A DNA stretch of 64,000 nt from Bacillota bacterium (GCA_023443285.1 JAEZVB010000128.1:3385-67384), one strand, 5' to 3'; shown: positions 34,379 to 58,369, counted from the stretch's first letter. Made by a program: numbers and translations. Notes: generated by a model not told the origin, from the letters alone.

Positions 34379-34394
34379 TGGCATGTTTTATGCA
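34379..34394 (+). promoter_or_regulatory. sigma-54 (-24/-12) promoter
   Basis: TGGCAT-GTTTT-ATGCA with GG-N10-GC spacing, about 50 nt upstream of the DUF2064 gene. Confidence 0.6.
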
Positions 34395-34446
34395 TATCTT
34401 AAAAGAATTATAGATAATGAGAATAGCAAATTGGGGGGATATTTCT

Positions 34447-35283
34447 TTGAAAAACGCAATTATTATATTTACGAAGGTGCCAAAGGTTGGGGAAAATAAG
34501 ACTCGGCTTACAACAGAACGCGGTGGCATTTTTACAGTGGAAGAAGCAGCGCAATTTTATGAAGCTTCCTTATTAGATGTGATCGAAAGCTGCATTGCTG
34601 CAAATTGCTGTGATGTTTATATTTGTATAAACCGGAATGGTAATAAGGACTATTTTAACAAAAGGATCGAGGCAGAATTTGGCAAAAACACGGTAAAAGA
34701 AATTTTTGCCGATAAAGGGCAATCGTTTGATCAAGGAATGCAATATGCAATCGATTACATATTTAAGGACAGAGCTGACCAAAGGTTAGCGGATAGTGCA
34801 TTTATCGTGGGTGGAGATACTCCGGCGCTTCAGCCTTCTACCATTCGTAAAGCAGTAAAGACGCTTGAGTTAATAGCAACTAGTGATGAAGCTTTCCAGT
34901 GTGCAAAACAGACCAAAATAGTAAATCCAACTATTGGCGCAGGAATAATAGAGTCTGTTGACCAAGAAGGCGGATTTAATCTAATTGGGTATACTTATTC
35001 CACGCCCTTTTCCTTTAATGGGGTTTTCTACAATTTAGACGGTGTGACTGCTTTGGATATGATTGCACGAAAAGCTGTGGAACGTGATATTCCAATGAAC
35101 TTGGTTGAAATGATTCCTGATATTGATTTGCCAGTAGATCTTGCCAGTTTGTTGCCTGTACTGAGCACTCTGCAGGTTGTAGGAAAATATGATTCTGATG
35201 TTAAGTTACCCACGCGGACAATAGAGTTTTTGGAAGAGATGGGCTTGCAAACATCTGCCCCGGTAACCGCAATTATTGATTAG
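34447..35283 (+). CDS. DUF2064 (TIGR04282-like, MobA-like GT-A fold) protein, paralogue 1
   Basis: Motifs AIIIFTKVPKVGENKTRL, GQSFDQGMQYA, VGGDTPALQ, EGGFNLIGY and DIDLPVDL are present. TTG start after GGGGGG aligns with paralogue 2; an alternative ATG at 34417 lacks an RBS. Confidence 0.7.
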   Translation: MKNAIIIFTKVPKVGENKTRLTTERGGIFTVEEAAQFYEASLLDVIESCIAANCCDVYICINRNGNKDYFNKRIEAEFGKNTVKEIFADKGQSFDQGMQYAIDYIFKDRADQRLADSAFIVGGDTPALQPSTIRKAVKTLELIATSDEAFQCAKQTKIVNPTIGAGIIESVDQEGGFNLIGYTYSTPFSFNGVFYNLDGVTALDMIARKAVERDIPMNLVEMIPDIDLPVDLASLLPVLSTLQVVGKYDSDVKLPTRTIEFLEEMGLQTSAPVTAIID

Positions 35284-35305
35284 TTTAGTGCTGTCAGTCC
35301 AATTT

Positions 35306-35512
35306 TTAAGCTATTATTCTATTCAGATTTTTATTTAATTCTTTTACTTCTCGTTTAATATCAGCAATAGTCTGAATTAATGCCTCCCGTTGCCGGCCAG
35401 GCGGCGTTTGGGCGAGGAGTCGCTGTTTGCGATGAAGTTGTTGATTAAGAGCTAGATATGTATTGATATCGCTGGAATAGTCCTTTGCTGTGGATTTACT
35501 TAAGAAGACCAT
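35306..35512 (-). CDS. small helical protein (68 aa), unknown function
   Basis: ORF lies downstream of a minus-strand sigma-54 promoter and has a K/R/Q-rich helical sequence. Confidence 0.45.
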   Translation of the reverse strand: MVFLSKSTAKDYSSDINTYLALNQQLHRKQRLLAQTPPGRQREALIQTIADIKREVKELNKNLNRIIA

Positions 35513-35609
35513 GAAATTACCCCCCCCATATTCAAAATGATACGTATAGTATCATTTTTTTTATTTTGCGACGTATAAGCAGAAAATTATGTGTTTATAT
35601 GTATATTAA

Positions 35610-35625
35610 GCAATATTCGTGCCAA
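35610..35625 (-). promoter_or_regulatory. sigma-54 (-24/-12) promoter
   Basis: The minus strand reads TTGGCAC-GAATA-TTGC, about 95 nt upstream of ATG 35512. Confidence 0.7.
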
Positions 35626-36266
35626 ATGTTTATAATGAGCAAATTTTAAACTTCTAGTTGCTGCGATTGCAAAAAAAAGAGTGTGATTTGCAATCGTAGC
35701 CTATTTAATATAGTAATTTGAGGTGTAAAGGTGTGGAAGAAAATATGAATTTGGATCTTAATCGATTGGTAGCAGAGACACTTTATCCAGGGGGACAGGA
35801 AACAAAAGCCAATCAGATTACGTTGTTAGATAATGAAATACAAATAGTTAAGGGGTTACGATATAAAAATTAGCGGTGAAGAGCTAGTAGGAAAATCTAT
35901 CAAACAGGGCATCATTGTTTTGCTTGTGTAGCGGGGGCTGGTAGCAGCTGCCAGGGAAGTTTAGACAACAAGGCAGTCTAAAATAAGGATTTGGTATACA
36001 GCGTAAATAGGAGCGATACTTATCACTGCAACGGCGACGGATGCTACTGATAGGTAGTGTGATTGAAATGTCTTAATTTGAGACAGAGCATATTAGCAAT
36101 AGTCAGAACAAAGATGTGTGATTATTCTGGAATTTTAGACATGCAATCTTTTTGTGAAAAAAAGCAGTCTCAAAATGAGACAGCGGTGCATTGGTTGTCT
36201 TCTTTTGATTCTTGACGCTATGCTACATCAATGTAATACTCATATTAGTAAAGGAGTGTGTATATA

Positions 36267-36533
36267 ATGGCTTTTACACTTATTGATGCAACGGCATTAT
36301 GGGATAAATTGAAAAAGGGTGGTCGGACTAGTTCGGTTAGCAAACTGGCAATGGATTTAGAGACCTACCAGTCTCACGAAGAACTAAAAGGTAAACTGCA
36401 AGACATTTTTAAGATGGCGGATGCTTCTTATCCTGAAACCTCTCATGTCATACATTTAAGAACTACTCTTTTATCGGCTCTGAGTCACATGGAGGCACAA
36501 GCTGGCCGAGGGCAAGGCTGCAGTAACTGTTAA
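36267..36533 (+). CDS. hypothetical protein (88 aa)
   Basis: RBS AAGGAG before the ATG; a TTGACG-16 nt-TAATAC promoter lies upstream. Confidence 0.5.
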   Translation: MAFTLIDATALWDKLKKGGRTSSVSKLAMDLETYQSHEELKGKLQDIFKMADASYPETSHVIHLRTTLLSALSHMEAQAGRGQGCSNC

Positions 36534-36610: not shown

Positions 36611-36889
36611 GTGTGTTGGTCCTGCAATCCGTACTGCGGAGGATGCAAGCCGCCTAAAGAAAAACCGGTTAAATGCGGTGAATGCGGGCACTATACCTTT
36701 CCAGAACTTAAGTACTGCAAAAAATGCGGTGCTACGTTACCGCCACCCAAGGAGCGGCCAACCGTAATGTGCTTATATATTGAAGCGATGTGTGCAAATC
36801 CTTGCAACAAACACAAAAAGCCTTCGCAAGATGGGCAGACAAAAACGTGCAAATGGCATACAGCGCCTAAAAGTGAACCAATTATTTAA
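36611..36889 (+). CDS. Cys-rich small protein (multiple CxxC zinc-ribbon-like motifs)
   Basis: CWSCNPYCGGC, CGECG and CKKCG motifs are present. GTG start after a GGGGGG run. Confidence 0.5.
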   Translation: MCWSCNPYCGGCKPPKEKPVKCGECGHYTFPELKYCKKCGATLPPPKERPTVMCLYIEAMCANPCNKHKKPSQDGQTKTCKWHTAPKSEPII

Positions 36890-36921: not shown

Positions 36922-37107
36922 ATGGATTATCCTTCTTTTACAAGTTCAGGTTTTGGTGAAGAAACAATTATATTTTCAAAAGGTGAATACGTATTATTGG
37001 ACATGGTAAGTAAGGGCAGTCGTTGTCTGGGAAAGACGGCTGAAGAAGCAAAGCAAAAGCTTAAGGAAATAAAAAAAGAGCATTTGGCCTATCAAATACC
37101 AGGGTGA
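36922..37107 (+). CDS. hypothetical small protein (61 aa)
   Basis: RBS GGAGG 7 nt before the ATG. Confidence 0.45.
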   Translation: MDYPSFTSSGFGEETIIFSKGEYVLLDMVSKGSRCLGKTAEEAKQKLKEIKKEHLAYQIPG

Positions 37108-37386
37108 TAAGTTAATAGCATAATAGACGATAGTATTTGAAATATTGCTTGCAATTTCTTAAAAAAAATAAATATATTAAAACTGCTTTTTATGAAGGAT
37201 ATTGTCGCTTTATGCAAGAATTATTACAAAAGACGAATCCGAGTCTGCATTTCCCATGCGGAAGTGATGACCTAGAGGTATGAAAAGCAATTTTTATGCC
37301 TGCCCAATTGTGCGAAGGAGAGTCTAGTAACCTAGACTGCTCTTTTTTTATATTGCTAGGACAAAATTTTGCTGGAGGGATTGTAA

Positions 37387-39543
37387 GTGGCAGTTACACA
37401 TTACACGAATGCTAGTTCACCTTCAACAACGGAACAATCAGCTTTTAAAAAGGAACTATTATTTCAAGAGCGGTGGCAAGCTATCCTTAGGTGTAAGGAG
37501 GAGTTTTTACAGAATCAATTGGAGGATCCACACCAACATCCTTATATGGATCAGGATGTTGCTGCCTCTTGGATTAGGTCGCGTAATAGGGGGGTTAATC
37601 CTTATTCGGTTGCAACCGGAAGCCATGTAGACTTGCAACAATTATCGGGAATTTTTGAAAAAAACCATATGCTTATCGAGATCACTAGATCATTATCTCA
37701 GTCTTTTAAAGAAATGATTCTTGCATGCGGCTACATATTTTATTTGCTAGACAATAATGGTGTTATATTACTTCATGAGGGAAGTTTTGAGAATTTTAGC
37801 ACACTTCCTGAATACTATTCAAGGACAGGCGTTATTGCCAATGAAGAAGCGGAAGGCACAACTGCTCATGAATTGTGTCTGCGGCTTAAACGACCGGTAC
37901 AATTATTGGGGCCGGAACATTATTGTGTAGCATTTCAAAATAGTATTGCCACGGCTGCACCGATAAAAGACGACAGCGGTGACATCCAGGCGGCGTTAGT
38001 GTTAGTGAGCCAGCCGTTGCTTAACACTCCTGATGAAGATACCCTTAGAAGGATGGGAATGTATAGTTTGGGTTTGGTGACTTCTTTGGCAACCGCTGTA
38101 GAAACTCAGATTGAATTAAATAAAACAACAAAGAGCTTGGAGAGCGCAAAAAGAACGGCAGAAATGGCCAATAAAGAACTGCAAACCACCCGGGATAAGC
38201 TCATAGCTGTTCACAGCACGCTAAATGCAACTTCCGCGTTTATTGATGAGGGAATAATAATAGTGGACAAACATGGCTTTATTATGCATATTAATCCGGC
38301 CGGAATGCATATGCTGAAGTTAAGTCCGAAACAAACGCTTGACAGGAATATAAGTGAGTTTCTTGATCGTAATTCAAATGTAATGTCCATAGCTGAAAAG
38401 GGCGAGAATTTTACTCTTGAAGAAAAGTTATATGTTGGTGCCGATAAGTGGTTGTATCATCTGTCGGTTCGGCCGGTAATAAATCAGGATACCCAAGAAT
38501 TAGATTCAATTGTTTTGAAAATTAGTCCCAATGAAAAAGGTGCTGCTCAACAGAATAAAAAAATAAGCAATCCGGATGTATATACGTTTGAAGATATTGT
38601 AAGCGAAGATAAGGAGTTCAAAAAGAGTTTAGTATTGGCTCAGCGATTTGCCAGTTCACCGGAAAATATTTTAATAATAGGGGAAAGTGGTACAGGAAAA
38701 GAATTGTATGCGCAGGCTATTCATAATGTAAATCGACCGCAAGGACCATTTATGGCAGTGAATTGCGCGGCAATGCCCAAGGAGTTAATCGGCAGTGAAT
38801 TATTTGGTTATGAAGGTGGCAGTTTTACCGGAGCAGAACGGAACGGCAGACCTGGTAAAATTGAACTTGCTCACGGTGGTACACTTTTTCTTGATGAAAT
38901 TGGTGATATGCCGCTAGAACTTCAAGCTGTATTACTTCGTGCACTGGAAGATAAACAAATAATGCGTGTAGGCGGCAGTCGTTATAAAAAAGTAGACTTT
39001 AGATTAGTTGCTGCCACAAACAAAAACCTCTATAAAATGGTAAAGGAAAACTTATTTCGAGAAGATCTCTATTTTCGACTGTCTGTCCTAACCATTGATG
39101 TTCCTCCACTTAGGAATCGGGGTAATGATGTTTTGGTACTTAGTCAATATTTTATTGAAAAGTATTGCCAGAAATATGGTTGGAAGACACCGCAAATAAG
39201 TTCTGCCGCTCAGAAAAAAATTAGTGAATATGGCTGGCCAGGTAATGTGCGGCAACTCCAAAACGCGATAATCTATGCAGTCAATACTACCCAAGATGGC
39301 CTAATTAAGCCTGAAAATTTACCGAACTATATCATTCTCGAAACTTGTCCGGTAAAACTTGATGATAGTATTAATAATAAAGGTAATATCGGCGAGATGC
39401 TATGTTTGGAAAACCTTGAGAAAGCTGCCATAGAGACTGCCCTTGCGCATTCAAACAACTATGTACCCCAAGCAGCGGAAATTTTGGGGATTAGTCGGTC
39501 GACGCTATATCGAAAACTTAAGGATTATAATATCGAATATTAA
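37387..39543 (+). CDS. sigma-54-dependent transcriptional activator, AcoR-like (GAF-PAS-AAA+-HTH)
   Basis: GAF-like sensor (..EGTTAHELCL..GPEHYC..AAPIKDDSG), a PAS segment, an AAA+ core (GESGTGKE, GSFTGA (GAFTGA variant), LFLDEIGDMP) and a Fis-type HTH (AAEILGISRSTLYRKLK). Confidence 0.9.
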   Translation: MAVTHYTNASSPSTTEQSAFKKELLFQERWQAILRCKEEFLQNQLEDPHQHPYMDQDVAASWIRSRNRGVNPYSVATGSHVDLQQLSGIFEKNHMLIEITRSLSQSFKEMILACGYIFYLLDNNGVILLHEGSFENFSTLPEYYSRTGVIANEEAEGTTAHELCLRLKRPVQLLGPEHYCVAFQNSIATAAPIKDDSGDIQAALVLVSQPLLNTPDEDTLRRMGMYSLGLVTSLATAVETQIELNKTTKSLESAKRTAEMANKELQTTRDKLIAVHSTLNATSAFIDEGIIIVDKHGFIMHINPAGMHMLKLSPKQTLDRNISEFLDRNSNVMSIAEKGENFTLEEKLYVGADKWLYHLSVRPVINQDTQELDSIVLKISPNEKGAAQQNKKISNPDVYTFEDIVSEDKEFKKSLVLAQRFASSPENILIIGESGTGKELYAQAIHNVNRPQGPFMAVNCAAMPKELIGSELFGYEGGSFTGAERNGRPGKIELAHGGTLFLDEIGDMPLELQAVLLRALEDKQIMRVGGSRYKKVDFRLVAATNKNLYKMVKENLFREDLYFRLSVLTIDVPPLRNRGNDVLVLSQYFIEKYCQKYGWKTPQISSAAQKKISEYGWPGNVRQLQNAIIYAVNTTQDGLIKPENLPNYIILETCPVKLDDSINNKGNIGEMLCLENLEKAAIETALAHSNNYVPQAAEILGISRSTLYRKLKDYNIEY

Positions 39544-39562: not shown

Positions 39563-39592
39563 AGTCTCCACATAAGGTGGGGACTTTTTTTT
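39563..39592 (+). terminator. rho-independent terminator of the activator gene
   Basis: Stem AGTCTCCAC / GTGGGGACT followed by TTTTTTTT. Confidence 0.75.
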
Positions 39593-39825
39593 ATATAAAT
39601 ATTGGGCTTGATATCCACTAAAACAGGTTAGTAGGATTATTAATAATCCTAAATTGATATTACACTCTCAAAAATGGATAGCAGAATTTTTGTTAAACTC
39701 TAAGACTGTAAGGCGATTTCAATGATTTCAATTTCCTAAAAATAGATTATCGTTCAGTTATTTTATTTTCACAAAAAACTCTGAAAACCTAGAAAAATGC
39801 AGGGTTTCTAAGACTTAAAATGAAT

Positions 39826-39841
39826 TGGCACGTTTGTTGCA
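39826..39841 (+). promoter_or_regulatory. sigma-54 (-24/-12) promoter
   Basis: TGGCAC-GTTTG-TTGCA, a perfect match to the TGGCAC-N5-TTGCA consensus. Confidence 0.75.
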
Positions 39842-39871: not shown

Positions 39872-40003
39872 ATGTCAGAAAACAAAACTACTGAAGAAAA
39901 ATCTCAACAGGCTCCAAAGGAGCAAACTGAAAAACCAAAAATCCCAGCATCAGCTCGTAAACCAGGACAGAACTATTCCAGTCCCAAATTTACGAAAAAC
40001 TAG
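39872..40003 (+). CDS. small hydrophilic peptide (43 aa)
   Basis: AAGGAGG RBS 7 nt before the ATG. Sequence is MSENKTTEEKSQQAPKEQTEKPKIPASARKPGQNYSSPKFTKN. The ORF-track entry 39825..40010 is in another frame without an RBS. Confidence 0.5.
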   Translation: MSENKTTEEKSQQAPKEQTEKPKIPASARKPGQNYSSPKFTKN

Positions 40004-40133: not shown

Positions 40134-40375
40134 ACAGGCCATGTTTTCTTAGTTAAATTTACTTAGCGTACTATTGTGATCGTACAAAAGAAAAGATTAA
40201 TATGATCCCATAATGACACTATGTCGCAAAAACGGATTGCACAGCTAATATATGCTTCATCCGTATTATGTACGCGTAAGTAAAGAGTTCTTGTTCTCAA
40301 AAGAAGATTACGAACACTTTAACTGGTAATAGAACAATCCAGCTAATTAGCCGTTTTATTGAGTTTTTAGTAAAT

Positions 40376-40391
40376 TGGCATGCTTTATGCA
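40376..40391 (+). promoter_or_regulatory. sigma-54 (-24/-12) promoter
   Basis: TGGCAT-GCTTT-ATGCA with GG-N10-GC spacing, 190 nt upstream of the alpha-1 ATG. Confidence 0.6.
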
Positions 40392-40580
40392 CTACTAGTA
40401 ACCGGACGACACAGGCAAACCATTTCAACAGGCTACACTCAGTACGCGTAAGTACAGGAGTAATGATACATTCAGCCAAGGGAATATTTTGGTACGCCAA
40501 ACGTCTGGGGAGGTGTCTCGTAAAGCTGATAGTGGGATTGTTTCTAACGTTAAGAAGTTTCTGAAAGGGTTGGTGAGGTA

Positions 40581-42849: not shown

Positions 42850-43185
42850 ATGTCTCGTAACGGTTTATTGATTGATTATGAATATTGTACAGGCTGCCAT
42901 AGCTGTGAAGTTTCTTGCAGAAATGAGAAAAACCTCCCTAAAGACAAATGGGGAATCAAAATGACTGAAGTAGGCCCGTTTAATGTAGAAGGCGATAAAT
43001 GGGAGTGGAACTTTGTTCCGGTTCCTACTCAACTTTGTGATTTGTGCGAAGACCGCGTGGCTAAAGGACAAAAACCAGCGTGTGCTCTTCATTGCTTGGG
43101 TCAATGTATGGAAGTTGGTCCTATTGAAGAACTGGCAAAGAAAGCTGAAGCAAAAGGTAAAAGCGTAGCTATATTTGTGCCTTAA
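42850..43185 (+). CDS. small 4Fe-4S ferredoxin-type subunit (beta-1, 111 aa)
   Basis: CTGCHSCEVSC and CDLCEDRVAKGQKPACALHC motifs are present. RBS GGAGGG. It is much shorter than DmsB-type four-cluster subunits. Confidence 0.8.
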   Translation: MSRNGLLIDYEYCTGCHSCEVSCRNEKNLPKDKWGIKMTEVGPFNVEGDKWEWNFVPVPTQLCDLCEDRVAKGQKPACALHCLGQCMEVGPIEELAKKAEAKGKSVAIFVP

Positions 43186-44818: not shown

Positions 44819-45309
44819 ATGTAATTAATTGATTTATTGCTACAAGCAAATGTCATGACTGCCTGCCTTGCGGGACTGTCATGGCATTTGCCTTTTGCCA
44901 GTCTGCATTGAAAAGTGAATGAAGTGGCAAAATGCCGTTTATCTGCAAAAGTGCACATGCTAATGAACTGGTTGTCTGGTCAATGGTTTTGGTGCCAATA
45001 TTAATGATTTGTGTGCAATTGCCGGACATTTTATATCGCTTTACGTTGGAATTGGTAGTATAGTCTAGTCATTTTCCTGGAAAGAATTATTTTTGCTTAT
45101 GTATGGGGGCGTTTGAATTTTAGTTGAATCCTAAAATGATACTGTGATTGTAAAAAGGGAGCATCTACTAGCGCTTGTTTTTTCTGAATTACGGGCTTTT
45201 AAGTAGCCATCTGGAATCCTAAAAAGAGATTAGTCGATTGCTATATAGTTGTAGTAAAAATCGAAAAAAATCCTTATATTACGCAGGTTTAGGCGTATTT
45301 CCGATAAAT

Positions 45310-49170: not shown

Positions 49171-49225
49171 CAGCAATATGTTTTTACGGTAATTAATCTA
49201 GTAGCTAAATAAGAATAAAATGTAG

Positions 49226-49271
49226 GGCTGTAGGTACTTAGTTTCTAAGTTTCCGTACAGCCTTGTTTTTT
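49226..49271 (+). terminator. rho-independent terminator of the MCP gene
   Basis: Stem GGCTGTA.. / ..TACAGCC followed by TTGTTTTTT. Confidence 0.65.
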
Positions 49272-49438
49272 GAAAAGTGGTATTTCTATTAAGAAAAACG
49301 GTGTTGGTCATTTCTAAAATGAGACAAAACGAGCAATGTTTCTCAAAATGAAAAAACGAAAAAAGCATGACAAAAATTGGGATAACAGCAAGTGCTTTAT
49401 CTATAAGGAATGGTAATGCTCAATACTGAAAGGTTTTT

Positions 49439-49454
49439 TGGCACGAATTTTGCA
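49439..49454 (+). promoter_or_regulatory. sigma-54 (-24/-12) promoter
   Basis: TGGCAC-GAATT-TTGCA. The 15-nt core TGGCACGAATTTTGC is identical to the one at 58354. Confidence 0.75.
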
Positions 49455-49564: not shown

Positions 49565-50392
49565 ATGCGCAATGCAATAGTCGTATTTACTAAAGTACCT
49601 AAGGCTGGGGAAACCAAAACCCGGCTTACTACAGATCGGGACGGAATCTTAACTCCGGAAGAAGCTATGGCTTTTTATGAAGGCTGCCTGCTTGACGTGA
49701 TTAATGTTTGCATCGAAGCAAACTGTGGCGATATCCGGATTTGTTACAATCATGACGGCGACCGTGAATGCCTGGAAAAACTGCTTTCTAGGGTGTGTGA
49801 CCGCGCACAGATTAAGGAAGTTTACCCAGACCAAGGCGGCAATTTTGACCAATGTATGCAGTATGCTGCTGATTATATTTTGAAAAACGGAGCTTCTGAC
49901 CGCTTGGCAGATAGCGTTATTATTGTCGGTGGTGATCTGCCAAGTTTACAGCCGAATATTATACAAGATGCTGTTTGTAAGCTGGAGCTGCTGGCAGCAA
50001 GTGAAAATGGTCTAAAAATTGCTAAGAAGCTGTCAGGTGTACCCAAGGATTTGGGCGCAGCCTTAGTGGAAGGTGCCTGTCAGGAAGGTGGGTTTTCAGT
50101 AGTTGGCTTTACCTGTACTACGCCTTTTGATTTCAACCGGGTATTTTATAATTCTGACGGGATAACCGCGCTGGATATGTTGGTAACTAAAGCAGTACAG
50201 GAAGATATACCGTTTGGTGTCGTTGAAGCTGCGTCTGACGTAGATATTCCAGTTGACTTAGCGAGTATGATACCGATTGTCAGGGCATTGGAATTAGCGG
50301 CGCGTTGCGACAAAAGCATTAAGATACCGGTAAACACCATTGCGGTTTTAAATGAACTTGGATTGGAATCCACGGCAGTTAAACACCGTTAA
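49565..50392 (+). CDS. DUF2064 (TIGR04282-like, MobA-like GT-A fold) protein, paralogue 2
   Basis: Motifs AIVVFTKVPKAGETKTRL, GGNFDQCMQYA, VGGDLPSLQ, EGGFSVVGF and DVDIPVDL are present. By eye it is roughly half identical to 34447..35283. Confidence 0.75.
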   Translation: MRNAIVVFTKVPKAGETKTRLTTDRDGILTPEEAMAFYEGCLLDVINVCIEANCGDIRICYNHDGDRECLEKLLSRVCDRAQIKEVYPDQGGNFDQCMQYAADYILKNGASDRLADSVIIVGGDLPSLQPNIIQDAVCKLELLAASENGLKIAKKLSGVPKDLGAALVEGACQEGGFSVVGFTCTTPFDFNRVFYNSDGITALDMLVTKAVQEDIPFGVVEAASDVDIPVDLASMIPIVRALELAARCDKSIKIPVNTIAVLNELGLESTAVKHR

Positions 50393-50414
50393 TCAATAAA
50401 GTAGTTGAGGAATT

Positions 50415-51536
50415 GTGGTGACTATTATGGGTAGAACGTGTATGGATACGCTAGCGGAAAACTGCATTGAATGTGGAAAATGTATAGAAATTTGCCAATT
50501 TTTAAAGAAAAATGGCAAAAGCCCGGCGGCTATTGCTAAACAAGGGGTTGAGGTTAGCGAAGCCTTTAGTTGTTCCTTATGTGGTGCGTGTGAGGCCGTT
50601 TGTCCTATAGGGCTAAGCCCAAAAGAAATGTTTGCCAGCCGAAGGAATGATGCAGTAGCTAATGGTGAATTGGATATTGATGAATATCGTTATCTATTTC
50701 CTGATAGAAAAAACAATGTTATGAATGTATACCGCAGCTATTACGGTATTGACTATCATGATATAGAAAATGTAGGCAGTGGCGGAACTTGGTTTTTTCC
50801 TGGCTGTACCTTGCTGACTTATTCGCCGGAACTAACGCGTGAGGTTTACCGCAGGTTGCAGACAGACTGTAATTGCCAGGGCATATGGACAGAGTGTTGC
50901 AGCAAACCTTTGATTCAAATGGGTTTGCTGCAAAGAGCCGAAGCTATGCAGGCAGAGTTAAAGGAATTTGTTCAAAAACATAACATTACAACGCTAATTA
51001 CGGCATGTCCGGGTTGTTATTATCAATTGAAAAAAGTTTTTGAATCCTGTGAAGTTGCTGTTCAGACTGTGTATGAAGTATTAAAAATAGAGCCGCTTAA
51101 ACGGACAGATAAAATCAAGTGCACCATCCATGATGCCTGTCCTGATCGTTTTGAACTTAAGTTTGCCAGTCAAGTGCGCCAAGCGTTAGAGAAAAGTGGC
51201 TTTTCTATAATAGAAATGAAACATAGCAAAAAGCAAGCGATTTGTTGTGGAAGCGGTGGAATGATTTCTCATTTTAATCCTGAATTAACGGAAGAACTCG
51301 TAGAACAAAGAATGAATGAAGTTAAGCAGTCCGGTGCCGATATTCTGGTAGGGTATTGCCTAAGTTGTGTATTGAAATTTGATGTTTTTAGTTCGCCTAT
51401 TTCTGTAACTCACGCGTTACACTTGTTGCTGGATCAAAAAAAAGAATTTTCTGGGGCGAAAGCACGGGTGGCTAAAATGCTCACCGGTGCAGATGGGGAA
51501 AAAGTATGGGAACAAATTATGGCAGAGGAAAGGTAA
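50415..51536 (+). CDS. Fe-S oxidoreductase with 2x[4Fe-4S] and two CCG domains (HdrD/GlpC/DsrK-like)
   Basis: Motifs CIECGKC..C, CSLCGACEAVCP, FFPGCT, CCSKP, ACPGC, HDACP and CCGSGG are present. Exact start is uncertain (GTG 50415/50418 or ATG 50427). Confidence 0.8.
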   Translation: MVTIMGRTCMDTLAENCIECGKCIEICQFLKKNGKSPAAIAKQGVEVSEAFSCSLCGACEAVCPIGLSPKEMFASRRNDAVANGELDIDEYRYLFPDRKNNVMNVYRSYYGIDYHDIENVGSGGTWFFPGCTLLTYSPELTREVYRRLQTDCNCQGIWTECCSKPLIQMGLLQRAEAMQAELKEFVQKHNITTLITACPGCYYQLKKVFESCEVAVQTVYEVLKIEPLKRTDKIKCTIHDACPDRFELKFASQVRQALEKSGFSIIEMKHSKKQAICCGSGGMISHFNPELTEELVEQRMNEVKQSGADILVGYCLSCVLKFDVFSSPISVTHALHLLLDQKKEFSGAKARVAKMLTGADGEKVWEQIMAEER

Positions 51537-51555
51537 GAAAAGGAGACAAAGCAAC

Positions 51556-52506
51556 GTGAACAATCATGAACTTGCCACAGCACTTACAAAAATGTTGACA
51601 CTCCGGTGGTCGCCGGTTGCTGTAAAACTATTAAAGCCGGGTGAGGAAATTCCAAAAAATGTAACTCAGCCTTCGGTTCCGCTAAGACACTGTCAGGCTA
51701 TTACTCTTGCTAGACGAGGCAATAGTTTGTATATGCCGCCAAGCAAACATGCCTGTCCGGATGGTGCTGCAATTATGGGGCTGATTCCGATGTCTCCTAA
51801 GCTGCGTTCTGGCGAATTATATCTACTGTTTAAAAAATTACCATCCATTGAATGTGCACAAAAGATGATCAGTACACGCCAGGAGTTTGAGGCCGGCAGT
51901 TATGCTGCGACTGTGCTTGCGCCGCTTGAAGACGCTACTTTTGAACCGGATGTCGTAATTTTTACCATTTATCCTGAGCAAATGATGTGGTTAATGTGCG
52001 CATCTAGCTATAGCACCGGAGAACGGCATAATTTTCATACCTCTGGTTACAACTCGACTTGTGCTGATTTGACGGTACAGGTTATGAAAACTCAGCAAAT
52101 GAATATTTCTTTTGGTTGTTATGGGGCCAGAGCCATTAGTGATATAAGTGATTTTGAAGCCTATGTTTCTATACCATATCAACAGCTGCCTACACTGGTA
52201 GGGGCGCTGGAAAAGTTGTCAGTTAAAAGTATACCGGAAGCTCGACGGCGGATTTATATGCCGCCGGTTATTGATAAAGTTGCTTGTCCCGAACAAGAGG
52301 GAAGTAATTCGGTCGAGCTTCGTATTGACAGCGACCGGTGCACCGGCTGTAGCTTATGTGAAGCCTTTTGTCCGGAAGCCGTAATTGAGATGGTCACTAT
52401 CGATGGGCAGCAAAAAGCAAGTGCACCGGCTGCCGAGAAATGCTGTGCCTGTTATACCTGTGTCGGGCAGTGTCCGCAGAAAGCCATACAGCTGACACTG
52501 CGGTAA
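51556..52506 (+). CDS. DUF169-domain protein fused to a C-terminal 2x[4Fe-4S] ferredoxin
   Basis: GTG after AAAAGGAGA. The DUF169-like body has WSPVAVKLL, RHCQAI, CPDGA and FGCYGAR. The C-terminus carries CTGCSLCEAFCP and CCACYTCVGQCP. Confidence 0.65.
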   Translation: MNNHELATALTKMLTLRWSPVAVKLLKPGEEIPKNVTQPSVPLRHCQAITLARRGNSLYMPPSKHACPDGAAIMGLIPMSPKLRSGELYLLFKKLPSIECAQKMISTRQEFEAGSYAATVLAPLEDATFEPDVVIFTIYPEQMMWLMCASSYSTGERHNFHTSGYNSTCADLTVQVMKTQQMNISFGCYGARAISDISDFEAYVSIPYQQLPTLVGALEKLSVKSIPEARRRIYMPPVIDKVACPEQEGSNSVELRIDSDRCTGCSLCEAFCPEAVIEMVTIDGQQKASAPAAEKCCACYTCVGQCPQKAIQLTLR

Positions 52507-52541
52507 ACAAACTAAAATTGCGTAAAATTGGGGGATAAAGG

Positions 52542-54740
52542 ATGAGTGAAGAAGTAAAAAAGGCGGCATGTCACTTCTGTCATATGAACTGTGGCATGCT
52601 GGCAACAGTCGAAAATGGAGTGGTAACAAAGGTTGTGGGAGACCCGGAACATCCCTTTAATATGGGGGCGCAATGTCCGAGGGGTGCTTCGGCCTTAGAT
52701 CACCTCAACCACCCTAACCGGATTAACTATCCGCTTAAACGGGTAGGCGAACGCGGATCAGGTGAATTTAAACGCGTATCGTGGGAAGAAGCATTGGATG
52801 ATATTGCAGCACGGTTAACTGCGTTAAAAGAACAATATGGTGCTGAAACCATTGCTACTACCGGTGGAACGAACCGGACTGACGATTTTGCCCGGAGACG
52901 TTTCTTTAACCTTTTGGGTAGTCCTAATGTTATTCACACAGCTCCTGTGTGCTGGATTCCTACCTTTCTCACTGAGGCAGCTTCCTACGGTTGGGTTGCT
53001 TCTGAACCTGAACTTGCTGGAGCAAAATGTGTCGTCCTTTGGGGACACAACGCGGGGTCTTCTTATTTGCCGGAAATGCGCGGAGTGTTAGCAGCTAAAG
53101 CCAACGGAACCAAAATTATCGCTGTTGATCCTAACTTTACAGAGACGGCTTCGAAAGCTGATGTTTGGTTATCATTAAAACCAGGTTCAGACAACGCTCT
53201 GGCGCTTGCCTGGTTGAACGTTATTATTAGCGAAGGTTTATACGACTTTAATTTCGTTGACGAATGGACAGTAGGCTTTGAAGAATTAGCGGAAAGGGTA
53301 GAGGAGTATACTCCTGAGTGGGCAGCTGAAAAAACCGGCCTGTCTCCGGAATTAATTGCTGAGACTGCCAGAATGTACGCAATGAGCAAGCCGGCTTGTA
53401 TCGTCTGGGGTGTTGCAGCTGATCAATTAGGCAGAGGTAGTGCTGCTTCCGCTCAAGCACGTGCAGCACTGCGGATTATCTGTGGTAACTTAGATGTTCC
53501 GGGCGGCGATGTTATGCCAGGACCTCACCCGACCTTTGTTACAGACTGGGAAATGGAATTAAACGATATGCTGCCGGAAGAGCAGCGGGCGAAACAAATC
53601 GGGTCAGATCGGTTTAAACTGAATTCTTGGCCAGGCTATAAAATACTAACCGAAAATATGTTGAAGGTTTGGGGGAAAAGTATCCCGGCAGAATGGTTCT
53701 GTGAAGCCAATCCTTCGATGTTGTTCAGAGCCATGGCAACAGGTGATCCGTATCCAATAAAAGCTTGTATTACCTTGGCGAATAATCCGCTCGTATCGTA
53801 TGCTAACTCCAAAATGGTTTATGAAGGACTAAAAAATCTTGATTTATATGTTGCAATGGAATATTGGATGACACCATCGGCACTCTTGGCTGACTATGTT
53901 TTACCAGCTGCCGGCTGGTTGGAAAGACCAGTTATGACAACTACGTATGGGGTTTCTGATTGGCTAATTGCCTCCGAGAAAGCAATTGAACCATTATTTG
54001 AGCGTAAGACTGACATAGAGTTATGGTCTGAGCTTGGGCATAGAATGGGGCAAGCGGAACATTGGCCATGGAAAACAGATGAAGAGATATTTAAAGAACG
54101 CCTTGATCCGATCGGTTTAGAAACTGACAGCTATGAAGAATTTGTGCAGCTTTATAGAATGCATTTTGCTGATCGTGATTATCGTAAATTCGAGACTCGC
54201 GGGGTGGCTACACCTTCAGGCAAAATCGAATTAAAAATTTCTACCTTTGAACAACTTGGTTATGATCCATTGCCTCATTATGTTGAACCGCCGTTTAGTG
54301 CCGAAACCAAGCCGGATTTAGCCGAACAATATCCGTTAAGTCTTGTTGCCGGTGGCGGATTTATGCCGTTCTTCCATTCGGAACATCGGGAAATAACAAG
54401 AATCAGGCTGCTAAGGCCGTATCCCCGGGTTGCCATTAATCCGGAGCTTGCCAAAAAGATGGATATCAAGGAAGGTGAATGGCTTTGGATTGAAACGCCA
54501 ACCGGCAAGGTTAAGCAGACAGCCTTTATTACTCCGGCCGTAGCTCCTGATGTAATTCAGGCAGAACGTGGCTGGTGGTTCCCTGAAAAAGAAATGAAGG
54601 CTCCGAGCTTAATGGGCGTATTTGAATCTAATATTAATGTTTGCATAGATGATGATCCGGATACTTTGGATGAGCTTTGCGGCAGCTTTTGCGCTCGAGG
54701 CGTTATGTGCCGGATTTCGAAAGTGGAGGGGAACGACTAA
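52542..54740 (+). CDS. bis-PGD (DMSO reductase family) Mo/W oxidoreductase catalytic subunit, Tat-less (alpha-2)
   Basis: 732 aa with the canonical N-terminal CHFCHMNCG...C [4Fe-4S] motif, GDPEHPFNMG, IIAVDPN and LKPGSD. The C-terminal barrel has SGKIELK..QYPLSLVAG..FFHSEH. No RR signal is present. It is a paralogue of alpha-1. Confidence 0.9.
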   Translation: MSEEVKKAACHFCHMNCGMLATVENGVVTKVVGDPEHPFNMGAQCPRGASALDHLNHPNRINYPLKRVGERGSGEFKRVSWEEALDDIAARLTALKEQYGAETIATTGGTNRTDDFARRRFFNLLGSPNVIHTAPVCWIPTFLTEAASYGWVASEPELAGAKCVVLWGHNAGSSYLPEMRGVLAAKANGTKIIAVDPNFTETASKADVWLSLKPGSDNALALAWLNVIISEGLYDFNFVDEWTVGFEELAERVEEYTPEWAAEKTGLSPELIAETARMYAMSKPACIVWGVAADQLGRGSAASAQARAALRIICGNLDVPGGDVMPGPHPTFVTDWEMELNDMLPEEQRAKQIGSDRFKLNSWPGYKILTENMLKVWGKSIPAEWFCEANPSMLFRAMATGDPYPIKACITLANNPLVSYANSKMVYEGLKNLDLYVAMEYWMTPSALLADYVLPAAGWLERPVMTTTYGVSDWLIASEKAIEPLFERKTDIELWSELGHRMGQAEHWPWKTDEEIFKERLDPIGLETDSYEEFVQLYRMHFADRDYRKFETRGVATPSGKIELKISTFEQLGYDPLPHYVEPPFSAETKPDLAEQYPLSLVAGGGFMPFFHSEHREITRIRLLRPYPRVAINPELAKKMDIKEGEWLWIETPTGKVKQTAFITPAVAPDVIQAERGWWFPEKEMKAPSLMGVFESNINVCIDDDPDTLDELCGSFCARGVMCRISKVEGND

Positions 54741-55282
54741 TGCACTGGGGAATGCTGATTGACTTAAGAAAATGTGCCGGCTGTTATGCCTGCACGATTG
54801 CATGCCAAAATGAAAACGAATTACCTTTTGATATGAAATACTGCAAAGTTGCCAAAGTGGGGCCAATTGGGGAGTTCCCGAATTTAACTTCCTATAATAT
54901 TACGCTAGGGTGTATGCATTGCCAAGATGCTCCCTGTGTTGACGGCTGTCCTACTGGGGCAAGTTACCACCGGGAAGACGGTATTGTGACAATTGATCCG
55001 GAGAAATGCGTAGGTTGTCAATTCTGTATGGTAGTTTGCCCATATGGTGTGCGGCAAATGAATAAAGAAAATGGAGTCGTTGAAAAATGCTCGATGTGCT
55101 TCAATCGCTTAGAAGAGGGTATGGTTACACGGTGTGTAGAAACCTGCCAGTTAAAGGCAAGGCATGTCGGTGATCTGGATGATCCTGACAGTGAGATTGT
55201 TAAACTGATACGGAAGCATAATGCACAGCCATTGTACCCGCATTTAGGAACAAAACCATCAGTTTACTATATCATGCCTTAG
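54740..55282 (+). CDS. four-cluster 4Fe-4S ferredoxin subunit (DmsB/PsrB-like, beta-2)
   Basis: TAATG overlap with alpha-2. Motifs CAGCYACTIAC, CMHCQDAPCVDGCP, CVGCQFCMVVCP and CSMC...C are present. Confidence 0.9.
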   Translation: MHWGMLIDLRKCAGCYACTIACQNENELPFDMKYCKVAKVGPIGEFPNLTSYNITLGCMHCQDAPCVDGCPTGASYHREDGIVTIDPEKCVGCQFCMVVCPYGVRQMNKENGVVEKCSMCFNRLEEGMVTRCVETCQLKARHVGDLDDPDSEIVKLIRKHNAQPLYPHLGTKPSVYYIMP

Positions 55283-55293
55283 GAGGGATTAGA

Positions 55294-56262
55294 ATGGAAA
55301 AACAGCAAGAATATTGGGGAAGTCAACCGGCGTGGTATTTCTTTCTAGCCGCAATGGGAGCAATGATGTTTGTTATTGCTGCGGTAGCAGATTTGCTAGG
55401 AAACCCAATAGCCGGACAAATTAATGGCTGGGTTAGTATTGTGGCCTTGGCTGCAGCCGGAATCGGCGCGTTGTTACTGTTAGAAGAATTAACACATAAA
55501 AGCAAGGGGCATTTGGTGAATGCGCGTCCTTTTGCTTCGGTTATGAGTTTTGGTTCTCTCGTACAGAGTTTGTATATGCCGTTGGTTTTTGTATATGGTA
55601 CGTTTTTCTTTGATTTTATTCCTTGGGCTGGATTGGGCTGGCTCAAGATGATTGTCGCGGTTCTGGCTATCATTGCGGCGCTGCTCTATGTTACCTACCC
55701 GGGCGTAGAGTTGGGCGAAGCAAGAGGCAGAGGTTTCTGGAACGGTGGCGGTCTGATTGGCGTTTTCTTAATTAACGGGGCTGTAACCGGAGCTGCCGCA
55801 TTAACTCTTATCTTGTGTGTACTTGGTTATAGTGAAAGTGCTTATACGATTACGATTAAGAATATAGCGGCCGCTTTGTTAGTAGCGCAGCTCTTCGCTA
55901 TACCTGGCTATGTATTAGGAATGAAGCTGTCACCAGCCGAAGAAGCACGTCGGGGAGCCAATAAATTGTGGAGTGGCGAGTTTAGTTCCTCTTTTTGGGC
56001 TGGAACCGTTATCTTCGGAACGTTAGTACCAATGATTATTACCTTGTTATTTACTTCTATTTATTGGCTGGTTATAGCAGCCGTACTGGTTCTTGTTGGC
56101 GGGGTCTGCTTCAGAATTGATTTCTTAAGAGCTGCCGTAAGAGTGACTTTGCCTGGTGAAGAAAAGGCTGAAATGAGCAGAAAAGAAATTGCTAGTCTAG
56201 CTGCCGTATTGGAAAATCGCTGGCAGGAAAAGGCTAGAGTATTAAACCCACAAAATAAGTAG
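55294..56262 (+). CDS. NrfD/PsrC-like integral membrane quinone-interacting subunit (gamma-2)
   Basis: 322 aa with about 8 TM helices. It directly follows the alpha-beta pair, as in PsrABC/DmsABC-type operons. Confidence 0.75.
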   Translation: MEKQQEYWGSQPAWYFFLAAMGAMMFVIAAVADLLGNPIAGQINGWVSIVALAAAGIGALLLLEELTHKSKGHLVNARPFASVMSFGSLVQSLYMPLVFVYGTFFFDFIPWAGLGWLKMIVAVLAIIAALLYVTYPGVELGEARGRGFWNGGGLIGVFLINGAVTGAAALTLILCVLGYSESAYTITIKNIAAALLVAQLFAIPGYVLGMKLSPAEEARRGANKLWSGEFSSSFWAGTVIFGTLVPMIITLLFTSIYWLVIAAVLVLVGGVCFRIDFLRAAVRVTLPGEEKAEMSRKEIASLAAVLENRWQEKARVLNPQNK

Positions 56263-56271
56263 AGGTACACG

Positions 56272-56736
56272 ATGAACGAGATAACCTTTGCTACTAGTGA
56301 AGATGAAGAAGAATTACAGGATTTATTTACAACTTACGGCATGGGTCTTGCCGGCGATATTGAGGAACATGTACTAGTAAAGGCAGATAATAAGGTGTTG
56401 GCTGGGGCGATGTTATCTCAAATTGATTCGAACTTCTTTCATTTGTTAGTATTTGCCGTGAGAGAAGACGAGCGTAACAGCGGGAGTGGCAGTCAATTGC
56501 TGCAAGAACTGCTTAGAGAACCTGAAAAGTATTGTCGAACTCCATTTGACCACACGGACAGCTCTTATAAGGTTACAACAGTTGCCAAAGGTGATGCTGC
56601 CCGTTTTTATGAAAAAAATGGATTTATCGCCTGTGCTTTTACTGAACTAGTTGAGCCTTATGATGAACAATGTGTGGAATGTCCTGATAAAGCAGATTGT
56701 AAACCTGTCGCCATGATGATTACTTGTCATAAATAA
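56272..56736 (+). CDS. GNAT-family N-acetyltransferase
   Basis: 154 aa with ..R..G.GS.LL.. (ERNSGSGSQLLQELL) and the FYEKNGF motif. Confidence 0.7.
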   Translation: MNEITFATSEDEEELQDLFTTYGMGLAGDIEEHVLVKADNKVLAGAMLSQIDSNFFHLLVFAVREDERNSGSGSQLLQELLREPEKYCRTPFDHTDSSYKVTTVAKGDAARFYEKNGFIACAFTELVEPYDEQCVECPDKADCKPVAMMITCHK

Positions 56737-56772
56737 CCTGATAGGAATAGGTACAAAGAGGAGAGAACTGAC

Positions 56773-57561
56773 GTGGAAGCAACTTTTTTATTACTAGGGA
56801 CTGGTGCAGGTCCTGGCTTACCTTCCTTCTTCTGTGATTGCGTGGGATGCCAGGAAGCCAGAAGTAATCCTGAGTTAGCCAGAACACGCAGTGGAGCATT
56901 CATCGACACGGGTAATAGCAAGATTCTTATTGATGCTTCTCCTGATTTACGCCGTCAGCTTATCAGAGAAAACATTACCCAAGTTGACAGTATATTTATG
57001 ACTCATTGGCATTATGATCATTTTGGCGGACTGGGAGAACTTGAATATTATATTAAATTATCAAGAAATGTATCAATCAATCTATTTTTACCGCCAAGTG
57101 CCGTACCGCAGTTTAGCGATGCTTTTCCTAACCTGAGGGAAGTTTTTGTGGTTAAAGCATGGGAATTTGGCGAGAAATATTGTTTGGATGAAGTACAGTT
57201 GACTCCTTTGCCGGCAAATCATGGGATAGAAACGGCGGGATTTTTGTTGGAAACACCGGGTAATAAGCTGGCTTATTACCCGGATACCGCCGGACTTCCT
57301 GAAGCTAGCGCGGCGATGGTGCGCGGGGTTGATTGGTTAATCTGTGATGCGACTTTCCACGGCGAAAACTGGTTTCCGCACGCTCATATGTCCCTTGAAC
57401 AGGCAATTGAGCTTGGCAGGCAAATCGGAGCTAAAAAAACAGTGTTGACTCATTTGGCTATTCATTATAGTCAACCCGTAACTACCTCTCAGCTTGCTGA
57501 AGAAGTAGCCCGACATGAGAACGCTTGTGTCGCTTATGACGGAATGCGTATTAAGCTGTAA
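56773..57561 (+). CDS. MBL-fold metallohydrolase, PhnP/PqqB-like
   Basis: LLLGTGAGPGLPSFFCDCVGCQEAR N-terminal Cys motif and THWHYDHFGG (HxHxDH). Confidence 0.75.
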   Translation: MEATFLLLGTGAGPGLPSFFCDCVGCQEARSNPELARTRSGAFIDTGNSKILIDASPDLRRQLIRENITQVDSIFMTHWHYDHFGGLGELEYYIKLSRNVSINLFLPPSAVPQFSDAFPNLREVFVVKAWEFGEKYCLDEVQLTPLPANHGIETAGFLLETPGNKLAYYPDTAGLPEASAAMVRGVDWLICDATFHGENWFPHAHMSLEQAIELGRQIGAKKTVLTHLAIHYSQPVTTSQLAEEVARHENACVAYDGMRIKL

Positions 57562-57589
57562 AACGGTTTGCGGATAAGAGGTGGAAGTA

Positions 57590-58183
57590 ATGAAAAGGTC
57601 ACTTGGAACTAAATTATTTGCAATGCCTTCACCGGTATGGGTTGTTGGAAGCTATGATGCTGACGAGCATCCTAATATTATGACGATTGCATGGGGCGGA
57701 ATATGTTGTTCAGCTCCCCCGTGCATAGCGATTTCGTTGCGAAAGTCACGTTTGACGTATACTAATATTTTGCAGCAGAAAGCGTTTACGATTAATATAC
57801 CGTCAGTAAAACATATAGCGGAAACAGACTATATTGGCCTTGTTTCAGGAAAAGACACAAACAAATTTGCCGTGACTGGTCTTACTCCCGTGCGAAGTGA
57901 TAATGTGAATGCGCCTTATGTAAAAGAGTTTCCTTTAGCCTTTGAGTGCAAATTGCTTCATGCACTTGAAATGGGAGCGCATACGCAGTTTATCGGGCAA
58001 ATTCTTGGCGTCAAAGCAGATGAAGATGTTCTTGACCATAATGGAATGCCGATCGCCAGCCTGGTGAATCCGTTAATTAGCTGCACTTCAGACCGTGCTT
58101 ATTATGCGTTTGGCGAATATTTGGGTCAGGCATATTCTACCGGGCTAGCACTTGTGGATAAGCAAGAAGGCGGATTAAACTAG
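57590..58183 (+). CDS. flavin reductase-like (split-barrel FMN-binding) domain protein
   Basis: RBS GAGGTGG. PVWVVGSYD....PNIMTIAWGG is typical of Flavin_Reduct domains. Confidence 0.7.
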   Translation: MKRSLGTKLFAMPSPVWVVGSYDADEHPNIMTIAWGGICCSAPPCIAISLRKSRLTYTNILQQKAFTINIPSVKHIAETDYIGLVSGKDTNKFAVTGLTPVRSDNVNAPYVKEFPLAFECKLLHALEMGAHTQFIGQILGVKADEDVLDHNGMPIASLVNPLISCTSDRAYYAFGEYLGQAYSTGLALVDKQEGGLN

Positions 58184-58353
58184 GATATCATTTTGGCGGT
58201 TCCTAAAAGGAAACAGTTAGTTTCAAAATGACACAAAAATAATACAAATAAAACAAGGCTTTTCATAATAACTAAAGCAGCATTAGCGCTAGGATGACGG
58301 TAAAGAGTGTAGTTATAAGGATTTTTGTGGGTATAGGGTATTAAAAAAACTAT

Positions 58354-58369
58354 TGGCACGAATTTTGCG
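58354..58369 (+). promoter_or_regulatory. sigma-54 (-24/-12) promoter
   Basis: TGGCAC-GAATT-TTGCG, lying upstream of the moaA leader. Confidence 0.75.

Follow-up and report, generated by a model that had tools for sequence, protein, structure and literature searches.

We analysed a 64,000-nt stretch of DNA from a Bacillota bacterium (GCA_023443285.1, JAEZVB010000128.1:3385-67384), here called the window (always the whole stretch, both strands of which were scanned for motifs). Judged from CodY and from the relatives found, it comes from a lineage of the Sporomusaceae (Negativicutes). On the evidence of sequence comparison, the window likely carries a local sigma-54 regulon of a DhaR/AcoR-type activator, the enhancer-binding protein encoded at 37387..39543 (+), with two RNA switches layered on top. 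An earlier note on this DNA had placed seven -24/-12 promoters under this one activator. The comparative evidence supports a local regulon for five of the seven; extended to all seven the proposal holds in part, as five promoters have convincing candidate activator boxes, the promoter at 34379 has weak ones and that at 35610(-) has none. A local regulon of five to seven promoters with a riboswitch above its activator has probably not been described before.

A genome scan with the activator as the query returned 12 loci with orthologues at 61-92% identity. These include Sporomusa malonica (L002), S. aerivorans (L003), S. acidovorans and several metagenome-assembled genomes; L001 is the closest relative of the window. 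S. ovata (L013), Sporomusa sp. KB1 (L014) and S. silvacetica were added through a moaA search and look-ups, which gives 15 related loci in all. The gene families of the island recur across all compared loci; gene order and strand vary.

The pattern TGGCAY-N5-WTGC (TGGCAYNNNNNWTGC) has eight exact matches in the window, against a mean of 0.65 in 100 dinucleotide-preserving shuffles (maximum three; none of the 100 reached eight). Seven of these are intergenic and each is oriented toward a downstream open reading frame (ORF): they precede DUF2064 paralogue 1 (34379..34393, +), a 68-aa ORF (35610..35624, -), a 43-aa ORF (39826-39840, +), the unit of MoA1, an enzyme described below (40376-40390, +), a Zn-ribbon/transporter unit (45310-45324, +), a long operon (49439-49453, +) and the molybdenum cofactor (Moco) operon (58354-58368, +). 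The eighth match, at 63645(-), is antisense within a ferredoxin-like coding region of the plus strand, which is consistent with the chance expectation of 0.65. A weighted GG-N10-GC scan puts the seven sites at the top of the window alongside the coding-region match at 63645, and finds no comparable site across the first 34 kb. The sites have the features of sigma-54 promoters: the GG and GC doublets are exactly 10 nt apart in a TGGCAC-N5-TTGC-like context, and the elements are gene-proximal, co-oriented and conserved in orthologous regions.

Most of what the earlier note had read from these promoters stands. Both scans recover the seven positions; the split into four TGGCAC-N5-TTGC cores (35610, 39826, 49439 and 58354) and three TGGCAT-N5-ATGC cores (34379, 40376 and 45310) is correct; the promoters at 49439 and 58354 have one and the same core (TGGCACGAATTTTGC); and each promoter faces a downstream unit. 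A reading of the two core types as functional classes was rejected: C and T at position 6, and TTGC and ATGC at -12, are interchanged between orthologues of one and the same promoter.

The -24/-12 motifs recur before the same gene families in L001-L014 despite the changes in order and strand. The promoter of the 43-aa ORF is kept in seven genomes, that of MoA1 in nine (in L009 and L010 as copies on the minus strand, some 8 kb away from the activator), that of the Zn-ribbon/transporter unit in ten, that of the long operon, before its DUF2064 paralogue 2, in five, and that of moaA in S. ovata and KB1. In L005 and L008-L011, operons of the type of MoA2 (the second enzyme described below) have a -24/-12 motif and are divergent from the activator. 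Altogether, five of the window's promoters are conserved in four to ten genomes.

Phylogenetic footprinting, with upstream alignments of three promoter groups (seven to nine genomes each), revealed candidate activator sites. In the three groups, and in a variant group, invariant box columns stand within otherwise diverged DNA, and each box is a 13-bp imperfect dyad, TCyy-AAAAn-rrGA. Box 1 has the consensus TCCTAAAATGAYACTG; box 2 (TCGCAAAAnnGGATTG) is 19 bp downstream of it and box 3 (TCYCAAAAAGAGATTG) about 70 bp past box 2. In about 25 promoters, counting from the T of TGGCA, they stand near -180, -161 and -92. In the window this three-box layout is found at 39826 (39647-39662, 39666-39681 and 39734-39749, +; seven genomes), at 40376 (40206-40221, 40224-40239 and 40295-40310, +; nine genomes) and at 45310 (45129-45144, a degenerate box 2 at 45148-45163, and 45217-45232, +); box 1 of the latter reaches 26.6 bits against a matrix that had no window sequence in its training set, and it is kept in most of the ten genomes. 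Three dimer sites per promoter would fit the hexameric working form of these ATPases. The promoters at 49439 and 58354 have two boxes each, which belong to this word family, are spaced by 20-30 bp and fall in the interval from -153 to -98: at -127/-98 for the long operon (variant boxes 49312-49327 and 49341-49356, +; counterparts in L002, L004, L013 and L014) and at -153/-133 for the Moco operon (58201-58216 and 58221-58236, +, the second at 17.7 bits, with a weak box at 58261-58276; kept in L013 and L014). In S. malonica, L004, S. ovata and KB1 the two-box layout is at about -130/-99.

The box matrices were trained on the non-window loci only and then scanned over the window. Box-1 matches of at least 13 bits number six on both strands (45128, 40205, 39646, 58220, 36167 and 58200), and each of the six has a sigma-54 promoter or the activator operon downstream of it, with none elsewhere; shuffles gave about four when the threshold was set far lower, at 9 bits. 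A plain word search with two mismatches, for TCCTAAAATGA, showed no enrichment overall (32 observed vs 28 expected); only its matches with at most one mismatch were informative, as were the matrix scans. One long palindrome across boxes 1 and 2 was also considered and rejected on inspection, each box being a short dyad of its own. The two promoters with identical cores share, in addition, a TATAAGGA word about 35-45 nt upstream of -24 (49390-49410 and 58305-58320), which L002 and L004 keep as TATCTATAAGG and which could mark a site for a further factor or be a trace of promoter duplication.

The activator combines a DhaR/AcoR-like sensor with an AAA+ domain and a helix-turn-helix (HTH) of the Fis type. 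The AAA+ domain has the Walker A motif GESGTGKE at 432, and the GSFTGA loop at 478, a lid domain is present as well, and Pfam assigns PF00158 (1.8e-63) and PF02954 (HTH_8, 1.4e-14), as in enhancer-binding proteins of the NtrC/Fis family. Pfam finds nothing in sensor residues 1-280. A search for homologues with the sensor region as the query did not recover the nearest Sporomusa orthologues. An AlphaFold model of residues 1-385, built on 19 homologues, has a pLDDT of 84, and its top Foldseek matches are 4lrx, 4lry and 4lrz, all E. coli DhaR(N), the best with E 1e-18. The sensor is accordingly modelled as a GAF-like domain, a linker helix and a PAS domain of the DhaR/AcoR subfamily, and the earlier name 'AcoR-like' is right at the family level. 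The NCBIfam scores are well below the equivalog cut-offs (DhaR 332 vs 551, PrdR 392 vs 795, AcoR also below), so the protein is not an orthologue of any named regulator. It is, as the earlier note had it, the single enhancer-binding protein of the window, since tblastn with the activator finds no second one; each of the 12 loci likewise has exactly one activator gene.

This gene, followed by a terminator (39566-39592, +), is the last of an operon with three small conserved ORFs that the earlier note had missed. They encode proteins of 88 aa (36267-36533, +), 92 aa (36611-36889, +; a Cys-rich double Zn-ribbon with a weak Zn-ribbon Pfam match) and 61 aa (36922-37107, +), and tblastn finds them in L001-L004, L007 and L012. 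In E. coli, DhaR works at a sigma-70 promoter under the control of two partner proteins, DhaK and DhaL. With a DhaR-like sensor in the activator, the three small proteins could by analogy be partners of the DhaK/DhaL kind. The operon has a sigma-A-type promoter with an extended -10, TTGACG-N17-(TG)TAATACT, i.e. TTGACG-N17-TGTAATACT (36212-36240, +), and the weighted scan finds no -24/-12 element upstream of it. Directly upstream of the -35 is the perfect dyad GTCTCAAAATGAGAC (36167-36181, +), which scores 16.6 bits with the box-1 matrix; promoter and dyad are kept in six genomes. From this arrangement we infer autoregulation of the activator operon through the dyad. The palindrome at 36167 is unlikely to be a minus-strand terminator: no gene lies upstream on the minus strand, and L003 lacks the T-run.

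The activator gene is separated from the last small ORF by a feature that the earlier note had also missed: a P3-less aptamer of RF01055 (Moco/Tuco-type, Tuco being the tungsten cofactor; 37224-37334, +), which is overlapped by a strong intrinsic terminator detected by terminator scan (37317-37349, +). The orthologous aptamers of S. malonica (L002), S. aerivorans (L003) and L012 score 47.8, 44.7 and 43.4 bits, all above the Rfam cut-off of 36. The aptamer keeps the P1/P2/P4/P5 core, and P3 is deleted in the covariance-model alignment. RNAalifold finds eight pairs with compensatory changes, with P2 and P4 covarying, and the window sequence folds 4 SD (standard deviations) better than shuffles (z-score -4.0). 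In six of six orthologues the 3' strand of P1 (GGAGAG or GGAAGUC) is inside the 5' arm of the terminator; P1 and the terminator are thus mutually exclusive, a topology that belongs to ON switches. Among RF01055 RNAs, lack of P3 correlates with the use of the tungsten cofactor, and the P3-less variants have been proposed as sensors of it (PMC2408646, PMC11725836); this cofactor is likewise the proposed ligand here. In a literature search of incomplete coverage, no RF01055 aptamer ahead of a transcription activator was found described.

The second RNA switch precedes moaA. It is a P3-containing Moco riboswitch (RF01055; 58386-58517, +) with 65.1 bits against the cut-off of 36 and P1-P5 all aligned, which together with the Moco gene downstream makes it a regular member of the family; the orthologous moaA-leader aptamers score 69-74 bits. 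A separate terminator found by terminator scan follows it (58523-58562, +), and the two coexist in the minimum-energy fold, which points to an OFF design. The aptamer starts 18 nt past the -12 GC of 58354, and 23 nt past it in S. ovata and KB1, a spacing that agrees with sigma-54 transcription beginning some 12 nt beyond the GC. The operon itself comprises moaA, moaC, a moaB/mog-like gene, MOSC, a 340-aa MoCF_biosynth protein and moeA (58613..63377, +). Promoter, boxes and riboswitch are all kept in S. ovata and KB1, and this supports the proposal of the earlier note that dedicated cofactor synthesis belongs to the regulon. In L005 (1725-1858) and L006 (2939-3069) the Moco riboswitch follows the stop of the metallo-beta-lactamase-fold (MBL) gene by about 10 nt and has no promoter, and in L008-L010 the Moco genes are co-directional with the DUF2064-CCG-DUF169-GNAT-MBL string. 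The joining of the Moco genes to this operon in distant genomes indicates an old link to cofactor synthesis; the separate Moco-operon promoter is a feature of the window's lineage. Given the Moco genes within the operon, the role of the DUF2064-CCG-DUF169-GNAT-MBL genes may lie in maturing the cofactor and not in catabolism of the substrate. A replacement of MobA by DUF2064 was also considered, but S. ovata and KB1 have a MobA-like gene just downstream, which weakens the idea. DUF2064 has a single, weak PDB match (3cgx, E 0.013), and a literature search for DUF2064 with molybdopterin returned nothing.

Several results weigh against one regulon with a switch of the ON type above its activator. 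The rpoN gene is absent from the window, and the recognition helix LGISRSTLYRKLK, though invariant, is common across the whole family and thus not diagnostic. The promoter at 34379 is conserved in L001 only and has weak box-like words (34273-34288 and 34290-34305, +; 10-11.6 bits), the same words standing at -106 and -89 in L001; that at 35610(-), also conserved in L001 only, has no boxes by upstream comparison or matrix scan. A core of their own (TGGCACGAAT[T/A]TTGC) and another box layout are common to the variant promoters, which would also fit a second activator encoded elsewhere, and 58353-58382 also matches a sigma-70-like TTGGCA-N18-TATAAT in 11 of 12 positions. The aptamer of the activator leader scores 31.9 bits in the window (E 9.5e-5), below the Rfam cut-off, it is absent before the activator in L005-L011, and its ligand assignment is a correlation from the literature.

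These points bear on four other explanations, the most durable of which concerns the activator leader: its aptamer could be an OFF switch or a decaying relic, with the cofactor repressing the activator or having no effect. The known terminator-bearing RF01055 members act as OFF switches (PMC2408646, PMC11725836), and both the low score of the window copy and the distant activator orthologues without the aptamer would agree with this. The position of the P1 3' strand within the terminator arm in all six orthologues is, however, the ON-switch topology, and the compensatory stem changes argue against decay; we consider the explanation unlikely, though it has to be taken seriously.

A division into two sigma-54 regulons, in which the adjacent activator would serve 39826, 40376 and 45310 and an outside activator 49439, 58354, 35610(-) and perhaps 34379, appears improbable. 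The near-identical variant core, the two-box in place of the -180/-161/-92 layout and the missing box at 35610(-) speak for it. On the other hand, the variant box TTTCAAAATGACACAA scores 17.7 bits with the box-1 matrix, is of the same word family, and closely resembles box 1 of the canonical promoters in L009 and L010 (TTCCAAAATGACACTG); the MoA2-type operons of L005 and L008-L011 adjoin the activator and carry canonical boxes 1 and 2; and no second activator is found in any of the 12 loci.

We give little credence to the suggestion that some of the motifs (candidates: 58354, 34379 and 35610(-)) are not functional sigma-54 promoters and reflect chance or overlap with sigma-70 elements. The sigma-70-like match at 58353-58382 and the narrow conservation of 34379 and 35610(-) are in its favour, as is the rate of about 0.65 chance matches per window, one match (63645) indeed falling in a coding region. 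Nevertheless, seven intergenic co-oriented matches are not explained by chance as a set, the sigma-70 reading is not kept in S. ovata or KB1 whereas the -24/-12 element is, and a sigma-70 start would clip the Moco aptamer. Finally, it is very improbable that the A-rich dyads are sites of another DNA-binding or bending protein (a global regulator or nucleoid protein), with the activator's sites elsewhere: the boxes are A/T-rich with an A-tract, as bending-protein sites are, and there are more conserved blocks between box 3 and -24 (GAACAATCCAG; TATCTATAAGG), but in the window the boxes are found only upstream of sigma-54 promoters and the activator operon, at typical distances of an upstream activating sequence (UAS; PMC6615313), with dyad symmetry, and they move together with the activator gene across the rearranged loci.

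Returning to the single local regulon, we infer from these comparisons that the activator binds the boxes; which way each switch works, what signal induces the system and what substrate the enzymes use are conclusions of the same kind. The activator operon would be transcribed from its sigma-A-type promoter under autoregulation by the one dyad upstream, and binding of the cofactor to the P3-less aptamer would allow read-through, so that the activator is made. Activator dimers would then bind the 13-bp dyads in the three-box or two-box layout, assemble the AAA+ ring and open the sigma-54 holoenzyme at TGGCAY-N5-WTGC. Five targets are predicted. One unit encodes the conserved 43-aa peptide; another, a soluble Mo/W enzyme resembling acetylene hydratase and an importer of the aromatic-acid type; a third, a Zn-ribbon peptide together with a chemoreceptor and a transporter for monocarboxylates. 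The remaining two are the long operon, with a second, NrfD-anchored and cytoplasm-facing acetylene-hydratase-like enzyme and putative maturation or electron-transfer proteins, and the operon for pterin-cofactor biosynthesis. The sigma-54 transcript of the latter would begin a few bases before the Moco aptamer, whose terminator would provide OFF feedback. Taken as a two-tier circuit, in which the ON riboswitch licenses the activator, the activator together with its own signal fires five to seven promoters and the OFF Moco riboswitch throttles the cofactor operon, this scheme is advanced tentatively, with a confidence just short of even.

The gene calls of the earlier note are borne out by Pfam and NCBIfam (two DUF2064 genes, two Mo/W alpha subunits of the bis-molybdopterin guanine dinucleotide (bis-MGD) type, AAHS and OFA/MCT-type transporters of the major facilitator superfamily (MFS), the Zn-ribbon peptide, the flavin reductase and moaA-moaC-moaB/mog-MOSC-MoCF-moeA). 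DUF2064 paralogue 1 (34447-35283, +) starts at TTG 34447, not at ATG 34417. The 43-aa ORF (39872-40003, +; MSENKTTEEKSQQAPKEQTEKPKIPASARKPGQNYSSPKFTKN) is hydrophilic, has the best promoter and a whole three-box enhancer to itself, and occurs in seven genomes at 55-89% identity. The MoA1 unit comprises MoA1, an acetylene-hydratase-like bis-MGD subunit (40581-42821, +), the small Fe-S subunit MoB1 (42850-43185, +; start at ATG 42850) and an AAHS-family MFS transporter of the aromatic-acid/H+ symporter type (43424-44818, +). The next unit consists of the Zn-ribbon peptide (45392-45532, +), an OFA/SfMCT-type monocarboxylate transporter (45741-46985, +; above the NCBIfam cut-off) and, at its end, a dCache chemoreceptor (47083-49170, +), followed by a terminator (49225-49271, +). 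The long operon (49565..58183, +) encodes DUF2064 paralogue 2, a CCG/HdrD-like Fe-S protein, a DUF169-ferredoxin, MoA2 (acetylene-hydratase-like; 52542-54740, +), MoB2, an NrfD-type anchor, a GNAT protein, an MBL-fold hydrolase and a flavin reductase, in a gene order shared with S. ovata and KB1.

Acetylene hydratase, a tungsten enzyme, is the best solved relative of both MoA2 (E 1.6e-135, full length) and MoA1 (2.3e-93), and its Cys metal ligand is aligned in both. MoA2 has His at the position of Asp13 of acetylene hydratase (CHFCHMNC vs CQSCDINC) and the N-terminal motif of MoA1 differs (C-x6-D-H-x3-C), so neither is an acetylene hydratase. Both proteins start directly at the Fe-S domain, with no twin-arginine translocation (Tat) signal. 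Substrate and inducer alike would most probably be an aromatic acid or some other carboxylic acid, perhaps converted by dehydroxylation chemistry. MoA1 is 92-98% identical among L001-L004 and L012, against 67-92% for the activators and 75-90% for other island proteins, which points to very strong constraint or recent exchange. Its leader of about 190 nt (40391-40580) has conserved blocks, e.g. GGAGGTGT, and matches no Rfam family.

On the minus strand, the promoter at 35610 is followed by a leader of about 65 nt that ends in a hairpin and T-run (35533-35558) and then by the 68-aa ORF (35306-35512). In L001 (5300-5720) promoter and leader are kept, and exactly the 68-aa ORF with its ribosome-binding site is absent. 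The promoter may chiefly yield a short RNA or an attenuated leader, with the 68-aa ORF as a seemingly accessory part.

The FhlA formate regulon of E. coli offers a well-known parallel: a GAF-AAA+-HTH activator serves several sigma-54 promoters for the Mo/Se formate dehydrogenase H (FDH-H), hydrogenase 3 and hyp maturation genes. The locus resembles it in having one local activator, several sigma-54 promoters, a bis-MGD enzyme with maturation genes, and upstream dyads (the UAS of FhlA is mentioned in PMC6615313). It differs in its seven promoters, in its DhaR-type sensor as opposed to the double GAF of FhlA, in its box (TCyy-AAAAn-rrGA vs TGT-N10-ACA), and in that pterin-cofactor biosynthesis is part of the regulon and the activator gene is behind a cofactor aptamer. 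With the DhaR/AcoR family (COG3284; 4lrx) it shares the fold, DhaR(N) being the best match and DhaR the best full-length NCBIfam alignment, and the Joint Genome Institute (JGI) names homologues 'regulator of acetoin/glycerol metabolism'; however, the targets are unrelated to dihydroxyacetone or acetoin.

In a survey of sigma-54 regulation in Clostridiales, 65% of the activators control one operon and none more than six, with multiple UAS sites 100-250 bp upstream and a consensus TTGGCAT-N5-TTGCT (PMC6615313). Among its examples are AorR (aor-moaD) and PrdR, and neither riboswitches nor molybdenum are mentioned (PMC6615313). As in those regulons, the Fis-type HTH activator adjoins its targets and there are multiple UAS sites; five to seven promoters are at or above the range set by the maximum of six operons, and the Negativicutes are outside the surveyed order. 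The moaA leader is a standard P3-containing RF01055 member before moaA (Regulski et al. 2008, PMC2408646), whereas the genes listed in the literature downstream of RF01055 are transporters, biosynthesis genes and cofactor-using enzymes, unlike the activator and the ON-built platform found here. The acetylene hydratase branch of bis-MGD enzymes also holds the catechol dehydroxylases (PDB 2e7z; PMC7028382). Like the Eggerthella dehydroxylases, MoA2 is accompanied by a 4-cluster ferredoxin and a membrane anchor (PMC7028382), but, going by the published description of Dadh, Cadh and Hcdh, MoA1 and MoA2 lack the Tat signal that these carry (PMC7028382).

Sigma-54 regulons are well mapped in Proteobacteria, partly in Clostridia and hardly in Negativicutes. 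The locus offers a testable regulon with a defined candidate binding motif, a fixed architecture and a new three-dyad enhancer, and, as it places acetylene-hydratase/catechol-dehydroxylase-like enzymes of acetogens (Sporomusa) under one inducible switch, the inducer should be findable with a single reporter. If the riboswitch layer is true, costly apo-enzymes would be avoided when the W/Mo cofactor is lacking by gating the activator and not each operon, and the P3-less RF01055 class would gain a clean genetic read-out for its disputed ligand. The aptamer would also be the first riboswitch known to precede the gene of a bacterial enhancer-binding protein, and would give RF01055 a member that works as an ON switch.

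Some further observations concern the surroundings of these genes. The MBL hydrolase (56773-57561) and the activator have weak NCBIfam 'GPMC system' matches (NF038231 and NF038230), far below the cut-offs, and a literature search on 'GPMC system' found nothing. In L001 (5551-8461) a radical-SAM/Cys-rich protein and a SAM methyltransferase are located between DUF2064 paralogue 1 and the activator operon, which recalls the radical-SAM association of the TIGR04282 DUF2064 family; a 272-aa ORF, intact in L001, survives in the window as a truncated piece at 35700-35850. An IS200-like Y1 transposase fragment (31980-32438) is found close to the island's left border. A phage-like stretch (4622-6336, -) contains a holin and an ORF with the Mtd second domain; no template/variable repeat pair was found within 1-15 kb, hence no hint of a diversity-generating retroelement. 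Two riboswitches unrelated to the finding were seen among the relatives: a c-di-GMP-I riboswitch in the S. aerivorans locus (L003 338-423, -) and a cobalamin riboswitch in that of S. ovata (L013 19956-20156).

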